Shown here one piece after another: positions 4,873 to 17,064 of a stretch of DNA of 64,000 bases (positions are counted from its first letter, which is position 1; each line of letters begins with the position of its first letter). The stretch comes from Escherichia coli (GTDB lineage: Bacteria > Pseudomonadota > Gammaproteobacteria > Enterobacterales > Enterobacteriaceae). The DNA lies in assembly GCF_965641715.1 (NCBI RefSeq), contig NZ_OZ282453.1, one strand, 5' to 3'. The translations under genes and the position numbers were made by a program. A model generated the notes under the pieces. It did no database searches, was not told the DNA's origin, and saw nothing but the letters and a program-made list of their open reading frames with translations.

Positions 4873-5105
4873 GCTGCACCTCCGAGATGCTTCATGTTTT
4901 TTCCGGAGCGAAAGGTTATAAGCGGCATACTGACGCGGTAATTACGGCCCAGCGGTTCACAAATCACCTTCTGACATTCACGGTCCACCAGGCTAACACG
5001 TAGAACATGCCCTGCGGGCGTGGTGTACCACTGACCAACGGTAGGAATTGATGTTTTTTTACGCTGAAGCAAACGGCAAATATTGAGGATCAACGGATTA
5101 AGCAT
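4869..5105 (-). CDS. Small hypothetical phage protein
   Basis: 78-aa ORF overlapping neighbours by 4 and 8 nt in the same operon. Confidence 0.3.
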   Translation of the reverse strand: MLNPLILNICRLLQRKKTSIPTVGQWYTTPAGHVLRVSLVDRECQKVICEPLGRNYRVSMPLITFRSGKNMKHLGGAA

Positions 5106-5934
5106 GACGATGCCCTCCGCTGATATTCAGGAAACGGTGAATATGAAGATTAGCCTTATCCGCCAGACGAATACGTTCAGCCTGCAAGTTAAGAAGGGTT
5201 TCTACCAGAACCTGATGCGCCTGCGGATCCGAAAGAGTTACCTTGCGCAGAGCACGTAGTGCAGTTGTTACATAGCTGAGTTTATGTAAGTCTTCATCAT
5301 TCAGACGAGTGAGGGCTGGGACAGTAGCCATGATGGCAGCCTCCGTATGCAATGGATAACTTCCACCACCGGAAACGCCAATTTCGCTGGTGGTGAACTG
5401 AGCAGGGTTGGCGTAACCGGCGCATACGGAAACCGGCGCACCTTTCGGTGCCCCCACCCAGCCCACCATAATTTGGGTATAGCTGAGTTGTAGCAACAAA
5501 AAAGACGCTAACGCGCCAATTGTCGCCGTATGCAATTCCAGGACGCCAATCCCGGCACCCGCTTTATAAGGTGCCTGAACAGTGTAACGTCCCGGAATGG
5601 CAGAATCAATGTGCTGGTGGTCCTTCACACTCAACAAAATCACGCCTGAATTTCCACAAAGGGCTAAAGCACTCATGCGGGTAGTCTTTGCGAAGATAGA
5701 TAACGCGCTGTGTTTCTGGTTCCCAACGAATAACATGGACATAAAGCCCTCTTCCGTCACGAAACCAGCGGTTAAGTTCCCGCACAACTCGCCCCCCACA
5801 GTCAGGTAAAGTTCTCTGTGGTTACTTACAGCCAGGTGATTTGGTAATCTGCATTCATGCCGTAACAACAGGTGTTCAGCGACACTGACCACCAGCTGTT
5901 GCGACAAACGGTTATTTGCCGTTAAACTGTTCAT
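5098..5934 (-). CDS. Hypothetical phage protein (early right operon)
   Basis: 278-aa ORF, co-oriented and overlapping neighbours; no motif recognised. Confidence 0.35.
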   Translation of the reverse strand: MNSLTANNRLSQQLVVSVAEHLLLRHECRLPNHLAVSNHRELYLTVGGELCGNLTAGFVTEEGFMSMLFVGNQKHSALSIFAKTTRMSALALCGNSGVILLSVKDHQHIDSAIPGRYTVQAPYKAGAGIGVLELHTATIGALASFLLLQLSYTQIMVGWVGAPKGAPVSVCAGYANPAQFTTSEIGVSGGGSYPLHTEAAIMATVPALTRLNDEDLHKLSYVTTALRALRKVTLSDPQAHQVLVETLLNLQAERIRLADKANLHIHRFLNISGGHRHA

Positions 5935-6494
5935 GCGTTAGTTTCTCCACAGACACAAAACGCCACGACGCCCGGAGCTGCACACTCGCGGGCGTCACTC
6001 TTTTCTGGAGCGCAAAAGATTTTGTAGACCAGTGCTGCATGCTCTTGGAGCTTCGAAATTGACAGATACAACTCATCATTAATTGCTGTCTGCTCGTGTG
6101 GCTCCACGACCCCATCTTCGATTGCCGAACGAATCTGCTTTGAGTAATTCCCGATCTGTTCGATGACTTCCAGCAGGCGCTGGTTTATATCGGCGTTCTC
6201 TACTTCCTCAATTTCAGGAAGCGATACGAACACCCCACCAGCAGACTGTGCGACAGCATCCGCAATGTAGTGAGTGCCAGCCGCGCGCTGTAAAACCATT
6301 GCCCATCCCAGCGGGAAAATCTGATCGCCATCGGCACGAAGGCGGTTAAATAATGCGTTCTCTGTTACATCCAGCCAGTCAGCTGCTTCAGCGTAACCAC
6401 CCGGCAACGCTGCGATAGTTTTTCTGACAGCTTTCACGTACCACTCAGGCTGTTTTTCTACTTTCCAGTGATACTTACCCACGGTTAGCCTCAT
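5931..6494 (-). CDS. Hypothetical phage regulatory protein in the CII/YdaT position
   Basis: 187-aa ORF immediately downstream of the cro-like gene; function inferred from position only. Confidence 0.3.
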   Translation of the reverse strand: MRLTVGKYHWKVEKQPEWYVKAVRKTIAALPGGYAEAADWLDVTENALFNRLRADGDQIFPLGWAMVLQRAAGTHYIADAVAQSAGGVFVSLPEIEEVENADINQRLLEVIEQIGNYSKQIRSAIEDGVVEPHEQTAINDELYLSISKLQEHAALVYKIFCAPEKSDARECAAPGVVAFCVCGETNA

Positions 6495-6525: not shown

Positions 6526-6726
6526 TTAATCTTTCGGATAGATATCCGGCCTTAAGTCAGATTTCGTAATTGCACCTGACGTGCATTGCTCAAGTTTTTT
6601 CGCCAGCACAAAACTGGCTTTTTTATAACCATTGAAAACCAGCCGTAAGTAGCCAGGTGTTGAGCCAACTTTTCCGGCCAACTCGCCCTGCTGTTCTTTG
6701 GTTAAAGAGTCCCAATACGCTTTCAT
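6526..6726 (-). CDS. Cro/YdaS-like HTH regulator
   Basis: 66 aa from an internal ATG with GGAGG 9 nt upstream (the ORF track begins earlier); sequence MKAYWDSLTKEQQGELAGKVGSTPGYLRLVFNG; divergent from cI. Confidence 0.5.
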   Translation of the reverse strand: MKAYWDSLTKEQQGELAGKVGSTPGYLRLVFNGYKKASFVLAKKLEQCTSGAITKSDLRPDIYPKD

Positions 6727-6816
6727 ACAATATGTACCTCCGATATACATATTACATGATTGAAATGAACCTTCAAGATACTTGTACCTTATCGGTACAA
6801 AGGTTTTAATTTCGTT
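6727..6816. promoter_or_regulatory. cI/cro intergenic switch region with operator-like palindromes
   Basis: Inverted repeat CTTGTACC-TTATC-GGTACAAAG at 6781-6802 and further TGTAC-containing sites at 6727-6757. Confidence 0.45.
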
Positions 6817-7491
6817 ATGAAAACAATCCATGACATCCGGCGGTCTAACGCCAGAAAACTGAGAGATGGTGTTGGCGGGAATTCTTCCTTTGCCACCATG
6901 ATTGATCGCGAGCCAACCCAGACCAGCAGGTTTATGGGAGATGGTGCTACTAAAAATATCGGTGACAGCATGGCGCGGCACATCGAAAAATGTTTCGACC
7001 TGCCTGTCGGATGGCTTGATCAAGAACACCAGACCACGAACATCACAAAAAAACCTGATGTTTCAATCACTAACAAACAAATAACGTTAGTCCCTGTCAT
7101 ATCATGGGTACAGGCCGGAGCATGGAAAGAAGTTGGCTATTCTGAGGTTGATTTGAGCACAGCAGAAACTTACCCCTGCCCTGTACCCTGTGGCGAAATG
7201 ACTTATATCTTGCGGGTGATTGGTGATTCAATGATTGATGAGTACCGCCCTGGAGACATGATTTTTGTTGATCCCGAAGTCCCTGCCTGCCACGGTGACG
7301 ACGTTATTGCATTGATGCACGATACAGGCGAAACCACCTTCAAGCGATTGATAGAAGATGGAACACAGCGTTATCTCAAAGCATTAAACCCAAACTGGCC
7401 TGAGCCTTACATTAAGATTAACGGTAATTGCTCTATAATTGGTACAGTGATTTTCTCGGGAAAACCAAGAAGATACACAATAAAGGCCTAA
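6817..7491 (+). CDS. CI-like phage repressor (HTH plus S24 LexA-like peptidase domain)
   Basis: 224 aa; C-terminal ILRVIGDSMIDEYRPGDMIFVDP with the Ser-Lys dyad context of the S24 family. Confidence 0.75.
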   Translation: MKTIHDIRRSNARKLRDGVGGNSSFATMIDREPTQTSRFMGDGATKNIGDSMARHIEKCFDLPVGWLDQEHQTTNITKKPDVSITNKQITLVPVISWVQAGAWKEVGYSEVDLSTAETYPCPVPCGEMTYILRVIGDSMIDEYRPGDMIFVDPEVPACHGDDVIALMHDTGETTFKRLIEDGTQRYLKALNPNWPEPYIKINGNCSIIGTVIFSGKPRRYTIKA

Positions 7492-7949
7492 TCAATATTT
7501 ATGAACCTGCTTCGGCAGGTTTTTTTATACTTGACAATGTACCCATGGGATACATAATGTATCCAAAAGAAACATGAGGCAGGCAAGATTCAAACAAAAT
7601 TTGGTTGTAACACGGCGTATGGCACATGCGTCGTTAGCGGTCTGGGGACGTTAAAGGGGACAATCCACTTCTTGCTCGGGCAAACAAACCAGGTAGCCGG
7701 AATGTGCAAGTCAATGATGATGCTGATAAGACGCCTAACCAGCGTGGCGATCCGGTTTGACGCCTGGGAAGAGACCAGGGTGCAACGATGAGGGCATTTA
7801 TAGAGCCGCGACAAAGTGTGGTGCCGTAACTGGCTAAGTGCTCTCAGCGTTGTGGTAATCCGCGAAATGGCGCGGCGGTAAGTATGGCGGGGTTACTCTT
7901 TCCCCGTTGAGGACACCGGATTGTCAGGTTGACCATACGCCTGAGTGAC

Positions 7950-8025
7950 AACCCCACCACAACAGCCACTGCTTTGGCGGTACCAGTTTGTACACTTGCT
8001 TCCGGCTGGTACCGCTCTTTTTACA
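7950..8025 (+). ncRNA. DicF-like small RNA / terminator hairpin (approximate bounds)
   Basis: TTTGGCGGTACCAGTTT ... CTGGTACCGCT stem followed by CTTTTT; resembles the recalled DicF 3' structure in the analogous operon position. Confidence 0.3.
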
Positions 8026-8159
8026 AAACAGAGAAGAGCATCACCGGACGACGGGCTCATAACCCAATCCATCCGGGCGGCTGCCACCGCAGGTGTTCTT
8101 CTCTGTTTTGTGGAGAAACCAACCGACCTTGCAGGGTCGATATGATGAGGAGCAGCAAA

Positions 8160-8522
8160 ATGGCTAGCGAACGCAGTACTGATGTGCAGGCATTTATCGG
8201 GGAGCTGGACGGCGGCGTATTTGAAACCAAAATCGGCGCAGTTCTCAGTGAAGTCGCTTCCGGTGTGATGAACACGAAAACCAAAGGTAAGGTCTCACTC
8301 AACCTGGAAATCGAACCATTTGATGAGAACCGTGTGAAAATCAAACACAAACTCTCATATGTTCGCCCGACTAACCGCGGGAAAATTTCCGAAGAAGACA
8401 CCACCGAAACGCCGATGTATGTCAATCGCGGTGGTCGCCTGACTATTCTGCAGGAAGACCAGGGACAATTACTGACTCTTGCCGGTGAACCTGACGGAAA
8501 ACTCCGCGCAGCAGGTCATTAA
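8160..8522 (+). CDS. YfdP-like phage protein
   Basis: 120 aa from the ATG after GAGGAG; the ORF track starts earlier at 7929; first gene of the yfdP-T-like module. Confidence 0.4.
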   Translation: MASERSTDVQAFIGELDGGVFETKIGAVLSEVASGVMNTKTKGKVSLNLEIEPFDENRVKIKHKLSYVRPTNRGKISEEDTTETPMYVNRGGRLTILQEDQGQLLTLAGEPDGKLRAAGH

Positions 8523-8587
8523 TATCGTTCTTAATTAACTGATTATTTATCTCATCACTGAATATCTTTATATAGTGAGGACTTATT

Positions 8588-9412
8588 ATGTCTCAGAACT
8601 TAGACGCAACCGCAATTAATCAAATCCATGCCCTTATTTCTGCTCAGGGTGTTAATGAAATTATCAGTAATATTGGTGCCGATGCTGTGGCATTGCCTGA
8701 GAATTTCCGCATTCATGATCTGGAAAAATTTAATTTAAATCGCTTCCGTTTCCGTGGTGCGCTTTCCACTGCCAGCATCGATGACTTTACCCGTTATTCT
8801 AAAGATCTTGCAGATGAAGGCACCCGCTGCTTTATCGATGCTGATAATATGCGTGCCGTCAGTGTACTTAACCTGGGTACTATTGATGAACCAGGTCACG
8901 CAGATAACACCGCCACTCTCAAACTGAAAAAGACAGCACCGTTCTCTGCCCTGTTGTCTGTTAACGGCGAGCGTAACTCCCAGAAGTCACTGGCAGAATG
9001 GATTGAAGACTGGGCCGACTACCTTGTGGGCTTTGATGCTAATGGTGACGCTATTCAGGCAACAAAAGCGGCTGCGGCAGTCCGTAAAATCACGATTGAA
9101 GCAAACCAGACCGCTGATTTTGAAGATAATGACTTCAGCGGCAAACGCTCCCTGATGGAGTCTGTCGAAGCGAAGACCAAAGACATTATGCCAGTGGCAT
9201 TTGAATTTAAATGCGTTCCGTTTGAAGGTCTGAAAGAACGTCCGTTTAAATTACGCCTCAGCATTATCACTGGCGATCGTCCTGTACTGGTTCTGCGCAT
9301 TATTCAGCTGGAGGCGGTGCAGGAAGAAATGGCTAACGAATTTCGTGATCTGCTTGTTGAGAAATTCAAGGACAGCAAAGTAGAAACCTTTATTGGTACT
9401 TTCACCGCCTGA
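8588..9412 (+). CDS. YfdQ-like protein (DUF2303 family)
   Basis: 274 aa; length and sequence match recalled K-12 CPS-53 YfdQ. Confidence 0.5.
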
Positions 9413-9539
9413 TTTCATTACTGCAAATGCCCCTGCGGGGGCATTTATGGAAACGTAATTTACTCAATAATCGCCGGATGGTGAGGGATTCTTTTTACCA
9501 GAATTCAGCGCGGTGCAGCGCATATACGTGGAGAACAAA

Positions 9540-10076
9540 ATGTCATTTATCAAAACTTTTTCTGGGAAGCATTTTTATTATGACAGGATAAATAAAGACG
9601 ACATCGATATTAACGATATCGCGGTTTCCCTTTCAAATATCTGTCGCTTTGCCGGTCATCTTTCGCACTTCTACAGCGTCGCCCAACATGCGGTTCTTTG
9701 CAGCCAGCTGGTGCCGCAGGAATTTGCTTTTGAAGCGTTAATGCATGATGCAACAGAAGCGTATTGCCAGGACATTCCCGCACCACTGAAACGCCTTCTT
9801 CCTGACTATAAACGGATGGAAGAAAAAATAGACGCCGTAATCCGTGAGAAATACGGGTTACCCCCGGTTATGAGTACACCCGTGAAATATGCCGATCTCA
9901 TCATGCTGGCAACCGAACGCCGCGATCTCGGGCTTGATGATGGCTCTTTCTGGCCTGTACTGGAAGGCATCCCGGCAACAGAGATGTTCAACGTGATTCC
10001 ACTGGCACCGGGCCATGCCTACGGGATGTTTATGGAACGTTTTAACGATTTATCGGAGTTACGCAAATGCGCATGA
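9540..10076 (+). CDS. HD-domain 5'-deoxynucleotidase (YfdR-like)
   Basis: 178 aa starting MSFIKTFSGKHFYYD; HD motif region HFYSVAQHAV ... MHDATEAY. Confidence 0.6.
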   Translation: MSFIKTFSGKHFYYDRINKDDIDINDIAVSLSNICRFAGHLSHFYSVAQHAVLCSQLVPQEFAFEALMHDATEAYCQDIPAPLKRLLPDYKRMEEKIDAVIREKYGLPPVMSTPVKYADLIMLATERRDLGLDDGSFWPVLEGIPATEMFNVIPLAPGHAYGMFMERFNDLSELRKCA

Positions 10077-10429
10077 ATGTTTTCGAAATGGAAGGGTTTC
10101 TTCGCGGGAAATGTGTACCGCGAGATCTGAAAGTGAACGAAACAAATGCTGAGTACCTGGTACGTAAATTCGACGCGCTTGAAGCTAAATGTGCGGCACT
10201 GGAAAACAAAATAATACCAGTGTCAACTGAACTGCCACCAGCAAATGAAAGTGTTCTGTTATTTGATGCTAATGGAGAAGGCTGGCTGATTGGCTGGCGT
10301 TCTCTCTGGTACACCTGGGGACAAAAAGAAACCGGAGAATGGCAGTGGACATTTCAGGTCGGGGACCTTGAAAACTTCAATATCACTCACTGGGCAGTAA
10401 TGCCCAAAGCGCCGGAGGCTGGAGCATAA
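10067..10429 (+). CDS. YfdS-like phage protein
   Basis: 120 aa; overlaps neighbours by 10 nt and 1 nt, suggesting coupled translation. Confidence 0.4.
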   Translation: MRMNVFEMEGFLRGKCVPRDLKVNETNAEYLVRKFDALEAKCAALENKIIPVSTELPPANESVLLFDANGEGWLIGWRSLWYTWGQKETGEWQWTFQVGDLENFNITHWAVMPKAPEAGA

Positions 10430-11049
10430 TGACCACATTTACCAATAAAGAACTGATTAAAGAAATCAAAGAACGAATCAGCAGCCTAGAGGTTCGAGAC
10501 GATATTGAGCGCCGTGCTTATGAAATTGCTCTGGCATCGCTGGAAGAGGAGCCGGTGGCATGGCTGCATTCAGACAATGGCTTAGGTATTCCGGCAATAA
10601 CCAGGAGCAAAAACATTGCTGACAGTTGGTTATCAATGGGCTGGTATGTTCAGCCGCTATATATAGCCAAGCCAGTACTGGTGGTGCCAGATGCTCGTCC
10701 GTCTTTAAATAATGGCATAGTCGGTTTTGATGAAGGCTGGAACGCCTGCCGCGCCACCATGCTTCATGGTGCCAAACCTGTAAGCCAGACTTACAAGTTG
10801 AACAAGCTGCCGGGCAACTCTCCGGTAACTCAGGATGGTTGGATAAGCTGTAGTGAGCGAATGCCGAACGATAAACAGTATGTTTGGTGTTGGGGTAAGT
10901 CTTACGGCTGGACTGAGTGCGATACCTTCGAAGGGTATTACGATTGGTCGAGAAACAAATGGTGGGCAGTTACTGACGATGGGGAAGAACCGGCATCGAA
11001 AGTAACCCACTGGATGCCGCTACCGGAGCCACCGCAGGAGGTGAAGTAA
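10429..11049 (+). CDS. Phage protein with DUF551-like C-terminus (YfdT-like)
   Basis: 206 aa; C-terminal WWAVTDDGEEPASKVTHWMPLPEPP resembles DUF551. Confidence 0.4.
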   Translation: MTTFTNKELIKEIKERISSLEVRDDIERRAYEIALASLEEEPVAWLHSDNGLGIPAITRSKNIADSWLSMGWYVQPLYIAKPVLVVPDARPSLNNGIVGFDEGWNACRATMLHGAKPVSQTYKLNKLPGNSPVTQDGWISCSERMPNDKQYVWCWGKSYGWTECDTFEGYYDWSRNKWWAVTDDGEEPASKVTHWMPLPEPPQEVK

Positions 11050-11243
11050 TGAACAACTTAATGACAACTAAACAAGTCGCCGACTTCTGTGGCGTTTCAG
11101 TATCGACCGTTCTTCGCTGGAACAGCGTAAACAGGAGAACTGGCCAGAAATACAGGCCTGACTTTCCAGATCCTGATATTAAATCCTGCCCAAATAAATG
11201 GGCATCACGCAAGATATACAGGTTTGCTGGAGTTATTGAGTGA
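11049..11243 (+). CDS. AlpA-family HTH protein / putative excisionase
   Basis: 64 aa; TTKQVADFCGVSVSTVLRWN HTH typical of AlpA/Xis-like regulators; lies upstream of the int region. Confidence 0.55.
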   Translation: MNNLMTTKQVADFCGVSVSTVLRWNSVNRRTGQKYRPDFPDPDIKSCPNKWASRKIYRFAGVIE

Positions 11244-11278
11244 TGGGTATTAGCTCATATCAGAACTAATACCCATCA
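11241..11278. promoter_or_regulatory. Perfect 13-bp inverted repeat immediately after the xis-like stop codon
   Basis: TGATGGGTATTAG-N12-CTAATACCCATCA; no T-run follows, so a protein-binding site or RNA stem is as likely as a terminator. Confidence 0.3.
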
Positions 11279-11445
11279 ATGACACAGAGCCAACTACCCA
11301 CCCTGTGTCAGGGGCTAACTTTTAACACCATAATTCACCGCTAGATAAAAACTGTATTGCATTGCACGAGCGGCGCAGCATTATCAGTTAGAGTGTCTTT
11401 ACCTTGTTAGGCTCCACAGTTCGCACTGTCCAACGCCTGTCACTT

Positions 11446-14400
11446 TCACACGCTGCGCCTTCGAGAATATTCATTTAATCGCTGATAACGAACATCTTGC
11501 TCCAGTTGTGGAGCAGCTTGAACAATTTGAAGCAAGCATTGCCCCAACTCTCGAGGCCCCCAGTGTTGTTCGGCAATCACGGCATTCAGCAGGGATAGAG
11601 CGTCCGCAGGATATCGGCTGCAAATATCTGATTCTAGCAAAAGGCGAACGTCGTAGCTAAGGTGTTCGAGCGGTTGCAGCCAGTCCTGCACCACTGCCAA
11701 AGCCGCCGGAAATTCACCTCGGGCAGCAATCACCATACGAGTCAACGATTCGGATATGCGTGGGGTGGCCAAGTTGCGGGACTTTGGCCAAACCTGTTGC
11801 CAAAATGGCTGGACACGATTTTTCCAATACTCCTCGCGCTGATCGCCCGCACCTTCAAGTGCCTGGTATAACGCCTGCGCGGCTACCTCCAGACCTTCTT
11901 GTGGAAGAGCACTAATTGCCGTTCGGAACTCCTCCACGGTATATCCCTCGGTAGGGCCCAGAGCTGCATAAGTCAGGAAAATAGCGAATTGCTGCCGGTG
12001 CTCGCCAAGATCAGAATAGTGATTGGCGCTCTCCAAAAAATCTGACTTGAAAGCTATCAGCAACGGTTCATACAGGCGTGGCGACCAGAGGAAGCCTTCC
12101 CACACAGCTTTTGCTTCGACGGGATTACTCCAAGCAAACAAGGGCAATAGATACTGTTCGGTCCAAGGTCGATCTACGCGAAAAAATGCGATCAGCCGCG
12201 ACCCCAGCAACACCCGACCATGGCGGAATAGCTCTATCTGTACATTACACAATTTGGTGAAAAGTGTTTTCAATTCAACAGGAAGCAAATCATTGTCATT
12301 CGGGTTCTGTTTGAACCATAGGGTGATCAGTGATTGCGTGACATGCCCAATGGGATGATTGATCGCCGTAGAAACAGGATCATAGGTCTCAATTCCGTTT
12401 CGAATGGTGCTAGACTCTGGGCTTGTTTCTATCATCAGAACCCGACGACAAAGGGCCAGTAGAATCTCCTCGTGGCAGAGGATGGTCTTCGAAGCCTCCT
12501 CCATCCACCAAGTGACAGCGTGGGAAATCTCCTGAAGTACTGCGTCAGGCATGTCAAGCACCAACGGTGCGGCGTACCGCCACGAACGCAAAATCATCCC
12601 TGGTTCAGCCCAAGTCTGCAGAGCTTCACGCCACCGACCAACAGGCCACACATCATCTTGTGATAGTTTACGTAACGCATACAGACTGTGAAAAAAGCGC
12701 GTACGGCAAACATCACTCCAAGTGTCCTCATAGAAAGGCAGTCTTTCTGGCATAGGCTTTGCGAGCCATTGCACTAATTCCTGCCACTTACGGGGCGCAA
12801 TGTCGACATCTATACTCTCCTCGAAGCCTGGATCACCGGTTCCGCTCATCCAGTGAGAGAATTCATCACGCTCGTTGGTTGCCAGTTGCCATTTTGGGTA
12901 TGCTGTGGATATTTCCGTCAAACGTGTAGCCGCAGACTCTCCCAAAACAAGGCCCGCTCCCCTGAGCTTCTCTAGACACAACCAGACGGAATGAGCCACC
13001 AAATAATGCCACCTGTCTGCTTCCAAATTATCCTCGTACATCTCGCGCGGAGGCCCTGCCAAGATAGCAGTTTCCAGACGCTCTTGTGCAATTCCTGTCA
13101 GATGTCGTCCCTGCAAAACAAACAGTCTGAATACCTCTCGCCGAGTATCCGTGGCCCACAACCACCATGAACCGTCCTCTAACAACCAATTAACCCACCG
13201 CTCAGGTGGTATGCAGTTGTCTTGGCTTGCGGCAAACAGTGCCAGACGTTTGAAGGTGGGATATGGCAACTCAAACCAATTCTGAGCAATGCGCGAGGCC
13301 TGATCGCTGTCTTTGGCTCGAACGGCTAACCATGAATCCCGAAGTAATTCAATCAGGCTCACCCAATCGCGGAACCCCCGGTTCTGCCAGTGCGGAGTGA
13401 TGGACGGCAAATCCCAATGCGAGCGGTCGTGACGATCGTCGGACTCTCCCAACTCCCGCAACAAGTCCAGTGCATCACGCAACAACTGCTGAAAATCTTC
13501 CAACAGGTATGGCAAGGACGATTTCCATGACTCGTCAGCAAGGTCGAACAGGGTTGAACGTACGTAATCAGCAGTCAGCACCAGCTCCCAATCCACCAAT
13601 TGCTTGATTCGCAAGGGTTCATCAGTGCTGCTCGAATCGTCTTCACTATAGCGAAACGGCCGCCTCAACATAACCTTGGGAGAAAGCAACTCGCGTAACT
13701 CCAAGCGCAATGTAGTCGTCAAGCCTTCATTCTTTAAGCGGTTTTGCCAACGATACAAATCCAGGTTCTGCAATGGCGATTTCACACGACCACTAAGCAG
13801 AAGCCGCCATAAAGTAGACATAGGTGGACCAGGAATAGCCAGGGGGGAATGCAAGAGAATTTCATCTAACTCAGAAGTCTTACGCTCCCGCATCAGTGCT
13901 GCTAAGCGATCTAGTTCGCTCTCAATCAGAAACATCCAACGGTCGTGTATTTGTCCGCCGCGTTCAGCAATCCATATGATCAACCTAGGGTCGCCCAGAT
14001 AACGAACTAGCCAACGGGCTATATGGGACATTACGTCATCCCATTTGCTAGCACTGACACATCCAGAAACCAGCGACATCTGCGGGGCCAGCTCATAGGG
14101 CGCAGGACGCTGAACCAGACTGAATCGGAGTTTCGGGTCAATTTCGACATGCGGAGATACACAAAAGCGTGGCAGATCGCTGTATTTAAATCGTTCGTCC
14201 GAGAAAGCTTTCAATAACCAATCCAGCGGCGGTGCAGGATTGAGTTCCGCAAAGCGTTTTGCTGGTAAACCTGATTTATCTGACAAGGCCCACAACATCC
14301 GACCAACGAAATCGTCCTGACGAGTGCTGTCCTGCGGGCGGGCCAGAGCATGTTTGACGACTATAGCCTCTTTGCCCTGTATACCATCTCGATAAGTATC

Positions 14401-15273
14401 TGCCCAAGCGTGCAACGTTTGATGCAGCACTGAATGATCAGTGGAGCTCGCCGGTACGGTGTAAAGGATAGGAGTGACCCCTTTGGCCTCCCACTCGATG
14501 GCTTTCCGGTGCTCCTGCCCCGGCTCACACTCCCCCAGTGCCCATACTTGTGGTGTGACTTCACCGAGCCTCCGATCTGCTGCAAGCGCATCCATCATGT
14601 AGCGCAGTACCGGGTCGTTGATGCTGTAGCCAACGAAGCAGACCACATAGTTACGAAATAACTCACTCACAAAGCGAGCTGCCCAACGCTCAGTGAGATA
14701 AGCCAAGCCAAAGTCACCGCTGGTAACAACCAGACGATTCAGGGCAGTATCATCCGCCTTTTCCGGTAACAGCCCATGCAGGTATACAAGTCCATCCCAG
14801 CGGCTGTTTTTTGGAATTGGCAGCATCGGCGCTACATAGGCCTGAAAAGCCTGGCCTGTACGTTTAGCTGCCACATGAAAGAGACGGTCAAAGTTGGTAG
14901 TGACCAATCGAAGGGCACCCTCGCGGCTACGGGCTAAACGTAACAGCGCCGCCTGAGTATCAATAGCGCCCCTACGACGGAGCTTTGGCTTAAGGGCTTT
15001 TTCCAACGCGCGTCGGACGGCTATACGCTGCCCTGGTAAGCGCCGTTCCAGCAAATCTAATGTGCCGTCAAATTGCCCACGCTCGAAAACCTCACGCTCA
15101 ATTTCTGAAAGTGTTGTTCCGTTCCTCTGGTAAATTAGTTCTACCAACCCTTTGAAACCAGGTAAACCAGCAGGGTAGGAAATGCCTGCTCCACAGAAGA
15201 ACACAACGCGCCCTTCCTCGTGCGCCTGCAAAAGCTCATCAGGAATATCAGGGCCGTTGGTAATGAATTGCAT
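11446..15273 (-). CDS. Large SIR2-like domain protein (N-terminal SIR2-type NADase-like domain plus about 1000-aa C-terminal domain of unknown function); candidate anti-phage defence protein
   Basis: 1275-aa ORF; N-terminal motifs VVFFCGAGISYPAGLP, VTTNFDRL, VYLHG, VCFVGYSINDP; no P-loop seen downstream; sits between xis-like and int. Confidence 0.6.
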   Translation of the reverse strand: MQFITNGPDIPDELLQAHEEGRVVFFCGAGISYPAGLPGFKGLVELIYQRNGTTLSEIEREVFERGQFDGTLDLLERRLPGQRIAVRRALEKALKPKLRRRGAIDTQAALLRLARSREGALRLVTTNFDRLFHVAAKRTGQAFQAYVAPMLPIPKNSRWDGLVYLHGLLPEKADDTALNRLVVTSGDFGLAYLTERWAARFVSELFRNYVVCFVGYSINDPVLRYMMDALAADRRLGEVTPQVWALGECEPGQEHRKAIEWEAKGVTPILYTVPASSTDHSVLHQTLHAWADTYRDGIQGKEAIVVKHALARPQDSTRQDDFVGRMLWALSDKSGLPAKRFAELNPAPPLDWLLKAFSDERFKYSDLPRFCVSPHVEIDPKLRFSLVQRPAPYELAPQMSLVSGCVSASKWDDVMSHIARWLVRYLGDPRLIIWIAERGGQIHDRWMFLIESELDRLAALMRERKTSELDEILLHSPLAIPGPPMSTLWRLLLSGRVKSPLQNLDLYRWQNRLKNEGLTTTLRLELRELLSPKVMLRRPFRYSEDDSSSTDEPLRIKQLVDWELVLTADYVRSTLFDLADESWKSSLPYLLEDFQQLLRDALDLLRELGESDDRHDRSHWDLPSITPHWQNRGFRDWVSLIELLRDSWLAVRAKDSDQASRIAQNWFELPYPTFKRLALFAASQDNCIPPERWVNWLLEDGSWWLWATDTRREVFRLFVLQGRHLTGIAQERLETAILAGPPREMYEDNLEADRWHYLVAHSVWLCLEKLRGAGLVLGESAATRLTEISTAYPKWQLATNERDEFSHWMSGTGDPGFEESIDVDIAPRKWQELVQWLAKPMPERLPFYEDTWSDVCRTRFFHSLYALRKLSQDDVWPVGRWREALQTWAEPGMILRSWRYAAPLVLDMPDAVLQEISHAVTWWMEEASKTILCHEEILLALCRRVLMIETSPESSTIRNGIETYDPVSTAINHPIGHVTQSLITLWFKQNPNDNDLLPVELKTLFTKLCNVQIELFRHGRVLLGSRLIAFFRVDRPWTEQYLLPLFAWSNPVEAKAVWEGFLWSPRLYEPLLIAFKSDFLESANHYSDLGEHRQQFAIFLTYAALGPTEGYTVEEFRTAISALPQEGLEVAAQALYQALEGAGDQREEYWKNRVQPFWQQVWPKSRNLATPRISESLTRMVIAARGEFPAALAVVQDWLQPLEHLSYDVRLLLESDICSRYPADALSLLNAVIAEQHWGPRELGQCLLQIVQAAPQLEQDVRYQRLNEYSRRRSV

Positions 15274-15455
15274 TCCTTTTCCTCCTATCCAATGTGCACG
15301 TTCATTCGAGTAAATGAAGGCAAGGGGTTACATCTTATTATACCGACCGTGCAAATCCGGCTTCCTAGCAAGCTACTTTACTTGCCAACTCATAATGTCC
15401 GAACTCCGAACAAAGCGGACTGCTAGATTTGATTGCGTTCTAGCTACGCAAAATA

Positions 15456-16679
15456 TCATTTCGAGCCTGAACGAGTACAAGTAACAATCGATTCAACTCT
15501 CTCCCACCATGCCTGGTAGGCTTTACGCTGTTCTTCTAGATAATCACTCTTGTCATAAACTTGCCATACACCTGGCAGTTTATGACCGAGCATTATTTCA
15601 GCAATATGAGGCGCAGTAAGATCAGAAAAGTTTGTTCGTGCTGTTCGTCTCAAATCATGAAGAGACCAATGAGGAAATTGATACCCCAAACGCCGCCATG
15701 CGTACTGCATTAAATTGTAAGGCAGCGACTGCAATGATGTCCGACCAACTGGTTCCCTGCTTCCTTCCTTAGTAAAAAGCATATCGGAACCGTTGTTCAT
15801 AGAGATAACGTATTTTATAAGCTCTTCAACCGGTTCAATAATGGGCCGCTTTAGCGGTTTGCCTGTTATATCCCCTGTCTTATGTCGTTCTGGTGGTACA
15901 GTCCATATTTTATTAATGAAATCAAAATCGTCCACCTTGGCAGTAATTAGCTCTGAACTACGGCAACCAAAATGCAGCAATAGTTTAATGAAGGCCCGGT
16001 ATTTAGGAACCATTCGAGAACCATCGATCGCAGCATAAAGGATTTTAATTTCATCATGTGTCAGAAACCGTTTCTTCTGACCTTTACGGATATCCATATC
16101 TTTACCCGTGATATCCGACAGCGGGCGAGTTTCAATGAGCTTTCTCTTATACGCCCAGACATGGGCCTGCTTTGCGTTAATTAGCAATCGGTCTGCTATT
16201 GCTGGAGTCTTAGTGCTAAGAGGCTCCAGGACTTCTAACCAATCATGCAATGTAGCTGCATCGTGAGGGATATTCCCGATTTTAGAGAACAGGTGCAGCT
16301 CAAACGAGCGGAGTATCTGTTCAGAACCTTTTTTATTTTTTACACAATATGCTTCATACCAAGCACGGATCACAGATTCTACCGTCATGGCTTCAGTAGC
16401 TTTACGTTTTTCTGCCAGCTTGACCAATCGTGGATTGCGGTTTGACTCGAGTTCACCACGAAGACGGATAACTTCTTCTCTGGCCTCTTTTAGTCCAGTT
16501 GCCGGGTAAGTTCCGATATCAAGACGCTCACCTTTCCCCGCCCACTGATAACGATATTGGAACACTACGCGACCTTTCGGTGATACTCTAACAGACAGAC
16601 CATCACGATCGGATTTAACCAAAACCTTATCACGTTCCTTTCCAACGACTGAACGCAACCACGCATCAGACAGCGCCAT
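15456..16679 (-). CDS. int: Tyrosine recombinase / phage integrase with N-terminal arm-binding domain
   Basis: 407 aa; N-terminus typical of P4/CP4-57-like integrases; catalytic region with HDLRRT and LGHK motifs. Confidence 0.85.
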   Translation of the reverse strand: MALSDAWLRSVVGKERDKVLVKSDRDGLSVRVSPKGRVVFQYRYQWAGKGERLDIGTYPATGLKEAREEVIRLRGELESNRNPRLVKLAEKRKATEAMTVESVIRAWYEAYCVKNKKGSEQILRSFELHLFSKIGNIPHDAATLHDWLEVLEPLSTKTPAIADRLLINAKQAHVWAYKRKLIETRPLSDITGKDMDIRKGQKKRFLTHDEIKILYAAIDGSRMVPKYRAFIKLLLHFGCRSSELITAKVDDFDFINKIWTVPPERHKTGDITGKPLKRPIIEPVEELIKYVISMNNGSDMLFTKEGSREPVGRTSLQSLPYNLMQYAWRRLGYQFPHWSLHDLRRTARTNFSDLTAPHIAEIMLGHKLPGVWQVYDKSDYLEEQRKAYQAWWERVESIVTCTRSGSK

Positions 16680-16685
16680 TACTCA

Positions 16686-16750
16686 CCTTGTACAAATAAC
16701 AAAAAACCTCTGCTGTTTTGTACATTATGTACAAGCACATGTACAGATTT
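16686..16750. promoter_or_regulatory. Cluster of TTGTACA motifs, including a perfect palindrome, upstream of int; possible operator, arm site or att-proximal region
   Basis: TTGTACA at 16688; TTGTACAttaTGTACAA at 16717-16733; TGTACA at 16740; AT-rich region 16680-16900. Confidence 0.35.
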
Positions 16751-17064
16751 TTGATGAAAGTAACCTGATCAATTTAAAGTTACATGAAAGAATTTTCAAT
16801 CAAAGAAATCACATAACATCATGTTATTAAATGAGTTATATAATTATTACTCAATTAATTGAAAGGATTTTGAAAGAGTAAAAGAGCTTTTATTTGGGCT
16901 TAATTATTGGGGTGAGAAATAATGGCAAAAGTGCGGCGCTTCGCCACCTCTTGCAAATAAGGAGACAACGTCATAATTCTTTCTTCTTGAGTAAGCGGCA
17001 TCGCGCCGCGCTTGTTGAAAACGAAAAATTGCGGCTATTTTACCCATCAACGGGGGGGAGGCAA

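Follow-up and report, generated by a model that had tools for sequence, protein, structure and literature searches.

The window analysed here is a stretch of 64,000 nucleotides of the Escherichia coli chromosome (contig NZ_OZ282453.1) that carries a lambdoid prophage with an immunity region of the e14/SfV type. In this prophage the word TGTACA is repeated directly upstream of int, the tyrosine integrase gene, and related words occur in the spacer between a cI-like repressor gene and a cro-like gene. It seems likely, with a probability of about 0.8, that the TGTACA repeats are arm-type sites of the integrase, set around an attachment (att) core in prfC, and that the operators at cI and cro are a separate system. 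What was observed directly is how the sites are built, where the att core lies, that the word occurs in both arms, that it is linked to int rather than to cI, and that it is conserved. The two systems have only the core GTAC in common, and this likeness is best read as coincidence.

The attachment core in prfC and the repeats around it

A preliminary description of the window had pointed to a TTGTAC half-site shared by the cI/cro spacer and the DNA upstream of int, and had offered two explanations: direct control of int by the repressor, or integrase arm or att-proximal sites at the prophage end. All strings that it named are present at the places given. The cI/cro spacer carries CTTGTACC-ttatc-GGTACAAAG at 6781-6801 and one further TGTAC site at 6733-6749. 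Upstream of int, TTGTACA or its complement is found at 16688, 16689-95, 16718 and 16728-34; the last two lie in the palindrome TTGTACAttaTGTACAA (17 bp, 16718-16734). Three TTGTACA and the palindrome had been listed there, and a fourth TGTACA, at 16740, had been missed. Over the whole window these words occur at chance level (21 observed and 23.2 expected for TTGTAC, 10 and 11.1 for TGTACA, 7 and 6.2 for TTGTACA). The cluster next to int, on the other hand, is beyond chance: a stretch of 57 bp upstream of int holds four TGTACA, whereas none of 2000 dinucleotide-preserving shuffles reached three or more per 60 bp. A Poisson estimate for this clustering is ~1e-6.

The attachment site was placed by alignment with K-12, whose site is free of the prophage. 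Identity begins at 16910, at about codon 22 of prfC. The att core GGGTGAGAAATAAT (14 bp, 16910..16923, the attR copy) is the same in attB of K-12, in attL of strain EC27 and in attP of cdtI and Ayreon. It lies in the centre of the intact attP of these two free phages, and in Stx phage records the depositors label these 14 bp as ‘duplication due to insertion’. The core belongs to the orphaned 5′ end of prfC (16910..16974, minus strand, ATG at 16974), about 21 codons or 65 nt that match K-12 prfC base for base and that are annotated as an incomplete coding sequence in related genomes. The prophage end that had been suspected next to yjjG was thus confirmed, but it lies inside prfC, and the 65-nt remnant of this gene stands between the core and yjjG. 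The genes rimI and holD also lie on this side, beyond int. prfC is a recognised integration locus of Stx phages (PMC10132054) and is also that of cdtI. The other end of the prophage lies outside the window and was read from EC27, a strain that matches the window at 99.6-99.8% identity in the immunity and int regions, with equal spacing, and from related phages.

Comparison with the empty site, as the preliminary description had suggested, places four TGTACA 165-220 bp from the core on its int side. Four more lie 70-180 bp from the core on its other side. The candidate arm word is ATGTACAA, which is 8-9 bp long, asymmetric and used in both orientations, with (A)TGTACA(A) as its fuller form. It is present in six of the eight sites, and each arm holds a 12-bp tandem pair. 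Within the int-proximal arm, the predicted site S1 (TTGTACAA, 16688..16695) abuts the Shine-Dalgarno sequence of int, AAGGTGAG. The predicted sites S2 (ATGTACAAA, 16717..16725, minus strand) and S3 (ATGTACAAG, 16727..16735, plus strand) together make up the 17-bp palindrome. The predicted site S4 (ATGTACAG, 16739..16746, plus strand) forms the 12-bp tandem with S3, and the same tandem pair recurs in the other arm. Across 21 distinct versions of this arm, the spacers differ, but none of the four sites (S1 to S4) or their flanks shows a change. These variants come from an IMG/VR integrase scan with 80 loci of 97-100% identity, most of which are cut at the int start. S1 is kept as TGTACAAGGTGAG or TGTACAAGGTGG in Salmonella, Pantoea and Xenorhabdus, where it again abuts the ribosome-binding site, and reads TGTACACAATGAGG in Serratia. 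The word stands in both arms and both orientations and forms 12-bp pairs, which is how the arm-type sites of heterobivalent integrases are laid out.

The product of int (15456..16679, minus strand, ATG at 16679; 407 aa; phrog_1 integrase) has the domains that such a role would need. An N-terminal Arm-DNA-bind_3 domain (PF13356) was found at residues 3-87 (E = 9e-16, 58.2 bits against a cut-off of 27) and the catalytic domain (PF00589) at residues 205-379 (E = 1.6e-17), with Phage_int_M in the centre. The N-terminal domain is of the P4 type that binds arm sites, and the core sequence occurs in attP as well as in attB, with one copy at either end of the prophage. Judged by sequence, all features looked for in the attP of a heterobivalent integrase are present: a catalytic domain, an arm domain, a duplicated core, a word in both arms and linkage to the integrase. 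The integrase would use its N-terminal domain to bind ATGTACAA in both arms and its catalytic part to bind the 14-bp core in prfC. Binding of arm and core would build the complex for integration and, together with the excisionase Xis, for excision. We infer the binding of the word by the N-terminal domain from this layout.

Between the cluster and the core, the word TGAAAG occurs four times (16755-60, 16785-90, 16860-65 and 16871-76). All four copies are invariant in the 21 variants while the DNA between them differs, and none is found in the other arm. CCTTTCA recurs in the arms of Salmonella and Pantoea. The TGAAAG words are candidate sites for Xis or IHF.

The far phage arm encodes a substitute N-terminus of RF3 (21 residues compared with 22 in the native protein) and must supply a new promoter for prfC. 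Four arm sites lie in this rebuilt promoter region, and because of this position the integrase could affect the expression of host RF3. Just past these arm sites, outside the window, a LexA-box-like sequence CTGTATACAAACACAG stands before a dinI-like gene at the far prophage end.

Predicted operators of the immunity region and candidate promoters of xis and int

The cro-like gene (6526..6726, minus strand, ATG at 6726) encodes a protein of 66 aa with a helix-turn-helix of the YmfT/YdaS type that matches phrog_35, a transcriptional repressor family. It is annotated as ymfT in identical genomes, and its product is 98.5-100% identical to YmfT of e14 and Cro of SfV. The cI-like gene (6817..7491, plus strand) encodes a predicted SOS-cleavable repressor of the YmfK type (224 aa; Pfam Peptidase_S24, E = 1.5e-26) with 99.6% identity to YmfK of e14 and 99.1% identity to CI of SfV. 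YmfK has been listed as the SOS-sensitive repressor of e14 (PMC8249747). Allowing at most one mismatch, TGTAC-N7-GTACA has three matches in 64 kb (6733, 6783 and 7538), all within 820 bp of the immunity region. The operator form is a palindrome of 17-21 bp, WTGTACC-N5-GGTACAW, and its half-site, read towards the dyad, is WTGTAYC. A symmetric matrix was built from nine distinct copies of the strong operators, and its five top scores in the window all fall within the immunity region.

Operator OR-a (tATGTACCtccgaTATACATa, 6731..6751) scored 24.4 bits and sits in an extended inverted repeat at 6723-6759. It fits TGTAC-N7-GTACA with one mismatch, in contrast to its e14 copy, which is a perfect palindrome. 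Operator OR-b (cTTGTACCttatcGGTACAAa, 6781..6801), the site that had been singled out in the preliminary description, is a perfect 7-5-7 inverted repeat with 24.2 bits. A weak third operator-like site in the same spacer (6764..6784) is outside the training set of the matrix and has the fifth best score in the window, 13.5 bits. Downstream of cI, a predicted intrinsic terminator (7503..7530, plus strand; a stem of eight pairs and then a T run) is followed by a PL-like promoter, TTGACA-16-CATAAT (7531..7558, plus strand; TTGACA at 7531, CATAAT at 7553), with 11 of 12 consensus matches. The terminator is annotated at the same place in Ayreon and SfV, and a promoter is annotated at the PL-like position in Ayreon. 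Operator OL-a (TGTACCCATGGGATACA, 7536..7556, core at 7538-7554) lies in the spacer of this promoter, has one mismatch and reaches the best score in the window, 25.5 bits. It is abutted by the weaker operator OL-b (7556..7576; 17.8 bits, fourth best, outside the training set), the left half of which is TGTACC in e14. The same three operators matching TGTAC-N7-GTACA were found in e14, SfV, cdtI and Ayreon, where substitutions preserve the pattern.

By its predicted elements, the combination of terminator, PL-like promoter and operator after cI is the classical OL/PL layout. The YmfK-type CI, and presumably the YmfT-type Cro too, would bind WTGTACC-N5-GGTACAW palindromes, with two strong operators and a weak one between cro and cI and two more at the PL-like promoter. 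This promoter would drive the early-left genes of the plus strand through xis. Literature searches did not find operators of YmfK or YmfT described, and an Rfam search over 5-18 kb gave no match at the operator or int-upstream motif regions. Two further features of this region were observed. TTGTAC (6782) and TTTAAT (6805), 17 bp apart, would start a cI transcript at or next to the ATG of the gene (6817), although the promoter scan was silent on it; this suggests a leaderless cI mRNA, as from PRM of lambda, with OR-b in the promoter spacer. About 370 nt after the PL-like promoter (7560-7930) are without a convincing open reading frame or Rfam match and are wholly different in e14 and SfV; this segment could be a nut-like or leader region.

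The integrase gene is transcribed away from the core at 16910, separately from plus-strand xis (11049-11243). This orientation requires that the int promoter be located within the int-proximal arm. On the minus strand, CATAAT at 16729-16724, within the S2/S3 palindrome, is a candidate -10 box of int, and six genera retain it as GTACATAAT, 35-48 nt ahead of the int start codon. Arm sites of both attP arms (in the window at 16724-16729, minus strand) contain the string TACATAAT, which also forms the -10 region of the PL-like promoter (7553-7558, plus strand). A weak alternative, TTGAAA-17-TAAATT (16771..16799, minus strand), has nine of 12 consensus matches and was the sole match of the promoter scan on the int strand; it would put all four sites in the leader of int. 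Whichever promoter is used, integrase bound to the -10-like site and to the site by the ribosome-binding site would hinder transcription of int. The integrase thus probably represses its own gene, by analogy with IntS of KplE1 and Int of P4. In KplE1 the int promoter overlaps the att arm, with an arm-type site across the -10 box, and both integrase and excisionase repress int (PMC2951348). Three other E. coli integrase genes of the same orientation are negatively autoregulated, Int of phage P4 is cited as repressed by Int and Vis, and the excision switch in such phages rests on expression of the excisionase (PMC2951348). In the window, xis ends the operon of the PL-like promoter that CI is predicted to control, so that the hold of CI over excision would be only an indirect one, by way of PL and xis.

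Possible readers of the repeats

The arm cluster travels with the integrase and not with the repressor, as far as the compared sequences tell. SfV and e14 have nearly the same immunity proteins (CI 99%, Cro 98-100% and YmfL 88-96% identical) and the three operators each, but their integrases are only 20% identical and no TGTACA cluster was found in 18-19 kb. The reverse holds for C325, where the integrase is 99.5% identical and the cluster is intact, while CI and Cro have 22% and 17% identity; no 17-mer operators were found there, and the cI/cro spacer carries repeats of the TTGCG/CGCAA type. A Stx1a phage at prfC has the same int/att module, an identical Xis (100%) and four TGTACA per arm with a CI of 32% identity, and operators of the present type were not found in the 14 kb read. 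Both modules are found together in cdtI, Ayreon and 12 Stx2c phages. Taken together, these sequences show that neither module needs the other, and they leave room for cross-talk where both are present.

More distant relatives were found by protein search and contig look-ups. Integrase homologues sit in prfC in Salmonella, Pantoea, Xenorhabdus, Serratia, Erwinia, Pseudomonas and Shewanella (85, 83, 65, 61, 55, 52 and 51% identical, respectively), and a homologue in Morganella (51%) lies beside trkA. The arms of these eight homologues cannot be aligned, yet they keep two to four (T)GTACA within ~100 bp of int, often including the 12-bp pair. In five of the eight, among them Xenorhabdus, Serratia, Erwinia and Morganella, the N-terminal domain is the best-conserved part of the integrase, while Xis diverges faster than the integrase, down to ~20-25% identity. 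For these reasons the integrase is favoured over Xis as the reader of the word. The arm or att-proximal explanation of the preliminary description is supported in that the core lies near the repeats, the word recurs four times in the other arm and the cluster tracks the integrase.

Direct control by the repressor, in which the YmfK-type CI or Cro would act on the TGTACA repeats to shut off int in the lysogen, has a very small probability. Operator half-sites and int-upstream sites do have W-TGTAC in common, and the palindrome at 16718-16734 looks like an operator. Its spacing is wrong, however: the dyads next to int have N5 or N8 between TGTAC and GTACA, compared with N7 in every operator copy of five phages, so that the halves of the 17-bp palindrome are 2 bp too close and those of the 12-bp pairs 1 bp too far apart. 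TGTAC is followed by A in the arm, whereas C follows in five of the six operator half-sites here (one e14 half-site also has A). The top matrix score of the arm ranks 26th of ~64,000 positions, but it is 3.3 bits compared with 24-25 bits for the operators. The joint presence of both modules in many phages (the cdtI, Ayreon and Stx2c phages named above) would also fit repressor control, but is explained by two modules 9 kb apart in one phage lineage, and the cluster is unchanged with CI proteins of 22-32% identity and absent with one of 99%. The word further persists in genera and elements that show no sign of e14/SfV-type immunity, and the four copies in the other arm are given no role by a repressor acting on int. 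Of the half-site that had been described as shared, the string is indeed common to both regions but the binding site is not, and direct control of int by CI is not supported. Because half-sites of the form ATGTACC resemble the arm word ATGTACAA, it is conceivable that the arm domain of the integrase also acts on OR/OL, or that CI acts weakly on the arm; we give such cross-talk an equally small probability. If true, it would couple the integrase level or excision to the immunity switch in phages that carry both modules.

It is unlikely that Xis (11049-11243) rather than the integrase binds the repeats. Xis travels with int, as its full identity in the Stx1a phage illustrates, int of the distant relatives has a small xis-like gene directly beside it, and TorI in KplE1 is an example of an excisionase that occupies short repeated sites in att arms and is able to repress int. 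However, Xis is down to ~20-40% identity in Serratia, Erwinia, Shewanella and Morganella with the word unchanged, and the N-terminal domain of the integrase is at 53-70% there. Occurrence in both orientations and a wide scatter over the two arms, as far as 220 bp away from the core, fit integrase arm sites better, and the TGAAAG words between cluster and core, being confined to one arm, are better-placed candidates for Xis. Still less probably, the repeats are promoter elements of int and the rebuilt prfC, or bind a regulator of host or phage origin, for example the CII-like YmfL, that would drive these two genes. Both arms are promoter regions, int is without another promoter and prfC is severed from its native one, and the -10-like CATAAT lies inside sites of both arms; eight copies in two orientations, on the other hand, are more than promoter hexamers need, and the Morganella relative, which is outside prfC, still has the repeats. 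YmfL was rejected as binder, as SfV and e14 carry it without the cluster; the Stx1a phage, in turn, keeps all eight sites without a YmfL match in 14 kb from the int end. Reading the int-upstream DNA for a LexA box (CTGT-N8-ACAG) revealed none. Finally, accidental repetition of a short palindromic word in AT-rich intergenic DNA would agree with the window-wide word counts, but its probability is negligible given the shuffles, the second cluster of four in the other arm, the sites unchanged in 21 variants and the word kept in eight genera; on the sequences compared, a chance origin is refuted by conservation.

Some points weigh against integrase binding to the repeats, or against the details of our reading. 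Excisionase sites can be found on both arms, as is reportedly the case for TorI of KplE1, and the occurrence of the word in the two arms is therefore not enough to set Xis aside as its binder. The sequence of the second arm comes from a 99.6-99.8% identical prophage and related phages and not from this genome. The operator matrix was made from the strong operators, so that independent support for it comes only from the weak sites at 6764 and 7556. Additionally, the -10 of the weak int promoter candidate varies among relatives (TAAATC/TAAATT), and the conserved CATAAT is without a recognisable -35.

Prophage setting and known systems

The ymfL-like cII gene lies at 5931-6494 (minus strand). After cI, the early-left genes of the plus strand comprise yfdP, yfdQ, yfdR and a yfdS-like gene, with xis as the last. 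This gene (11049..11243, plus strand) encodes a predicted excisionase or recombination directionality factor of 64 aa (phrog_1553 excisionase, E = 7.7e-36); matches to HTH_17 and Gifsy-1 Xis were weak and below the cut-off, and its orthologue in cdtI is annotated as excisionase. The gap between the convergent genes xis and int (11244-15455) is a cargo slot, occupied here by the anti-phage gene dsr1 (11446-15273, minus strand; SIR2-type defence, 1275 aa). C325 also has dsr1 in this slot, while STEFF_1 has an anti-phage dCTP deaminase there and Ayreon and cdtI have other open reading frames. In the relatives from Pantoea, Xenorhabdus and Serratia, xis abuts the 3′ end of int and the slot is free of cargo. 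At 5386-5574 (minus strand), inside an open reading frame at 5098-5934 (minus strand), Rfam matches to the C4 antisense RNA (80.7 bits) and isrK (61.2 bits) are adjacent to each other, and the pair adjoins genes for ash/Rha-type regulators, as annotated in related prophages. This suggests a second antirepressor control in the style of P1/P7 alongside the CI/Cro switch.

The finding is a well-supported new example of an ordinary and well-understood phage feature and is conceptually routine. It settles the annotation of the prophage end, with a core inside prfC, eight arm sites and a separate set of operators of the e14/SfV type. It also gives a concrete predicted arm-site word, (A)TGTACA(A), for a widespread group of integrases that mostly target prfC and that, in E. 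coli, carry Stx, Cdt and anti-phage cargo. Literature searches did not find the arm sites of this integrase group or the prfC attP described, and matches to TGTACA were Gateway or phiC31 cloning papers. We predict that int limits itself and that xis, expressed from PL, acts as the gate to excision, which bears on how easily toxin and defence prophages are excised upon induction. The word should be useful for annotation and for the design of integration vectors.

Among known systems, attP of phage lambda has the arm-type sites P1, P2 and P′1-P′3 together with sites for Xis and IHF. As is generally known, its integrase is also heterobivalent and reads a short asymmetric arm word, unlike the core, in both arms and both orientations, and a second set of repeats is likewise found in one arm only, between arm sites and core. 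In contrast to the present case, the arm-binding fold of lambda integrase is different and not PF13356, and PL and PI drive lambda int, together with xis, in the direction of att. At ~220 and ~190 bp, the present arms exceed those of lambda in length, and the core lies in a protein-coding gene, the 5′ end of which is replaced by the phage.

KplE1 (CPS-53) is similar in another respect. IntS has the same set of domains and aligns over 377 residues, int adjoins att and is read away from the core, and the excisionase gene is transcribed separately from int. KplE1 also has the early-left genes yfdP, yfdQ, yfdR and yfdS in common with the present prophage. On the other hand, IntS is only 22% identical, TorI and Xis are not detectably related (E = 0.5), attL of KplE1 is without TGTACA and the target is the tRNA gene argW instead of prfC. 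Moreover, int and torI lie at opposite ends of KplE1, whereas int and xis converge at one end here. KplE1 was therefore rejected as a direct homologue and serves as a mechanistic analogue only; self-repression has been shown there, while we only infer it here.

e14 and SfV, with CI and Cro 98-100% identical, have the same three operator 17-mers in the same places, and the SfV record labels the cI/cro spacer as ‘putative operator region’. They differ in their integrases (20% identical), in their lambda-like xis-int operons and in having no TGTACA cluster. Integrative conjugative elements of the SXT/R391 family integrate into the 5′ end of prfC (PMC5812530), but these are conjugative elements and not phages. 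Among the records and papers on cdtI, Ayreon and the Stx phages at prfC, those that were readable do not describe arm sites. The int/att module of these phages is the same as the present one, with 95.6-99.8% DNA identity, and includes the 14-bp core and all eight sites. The immunity region too is that of the present prophage in cdtI, Ayreon and the Stx2c phages, in contrast to the Stx1a phages, which have a different repressor, and the cargo is cdt, cif or stx in those phages compared with dsr1 in the present prophage.

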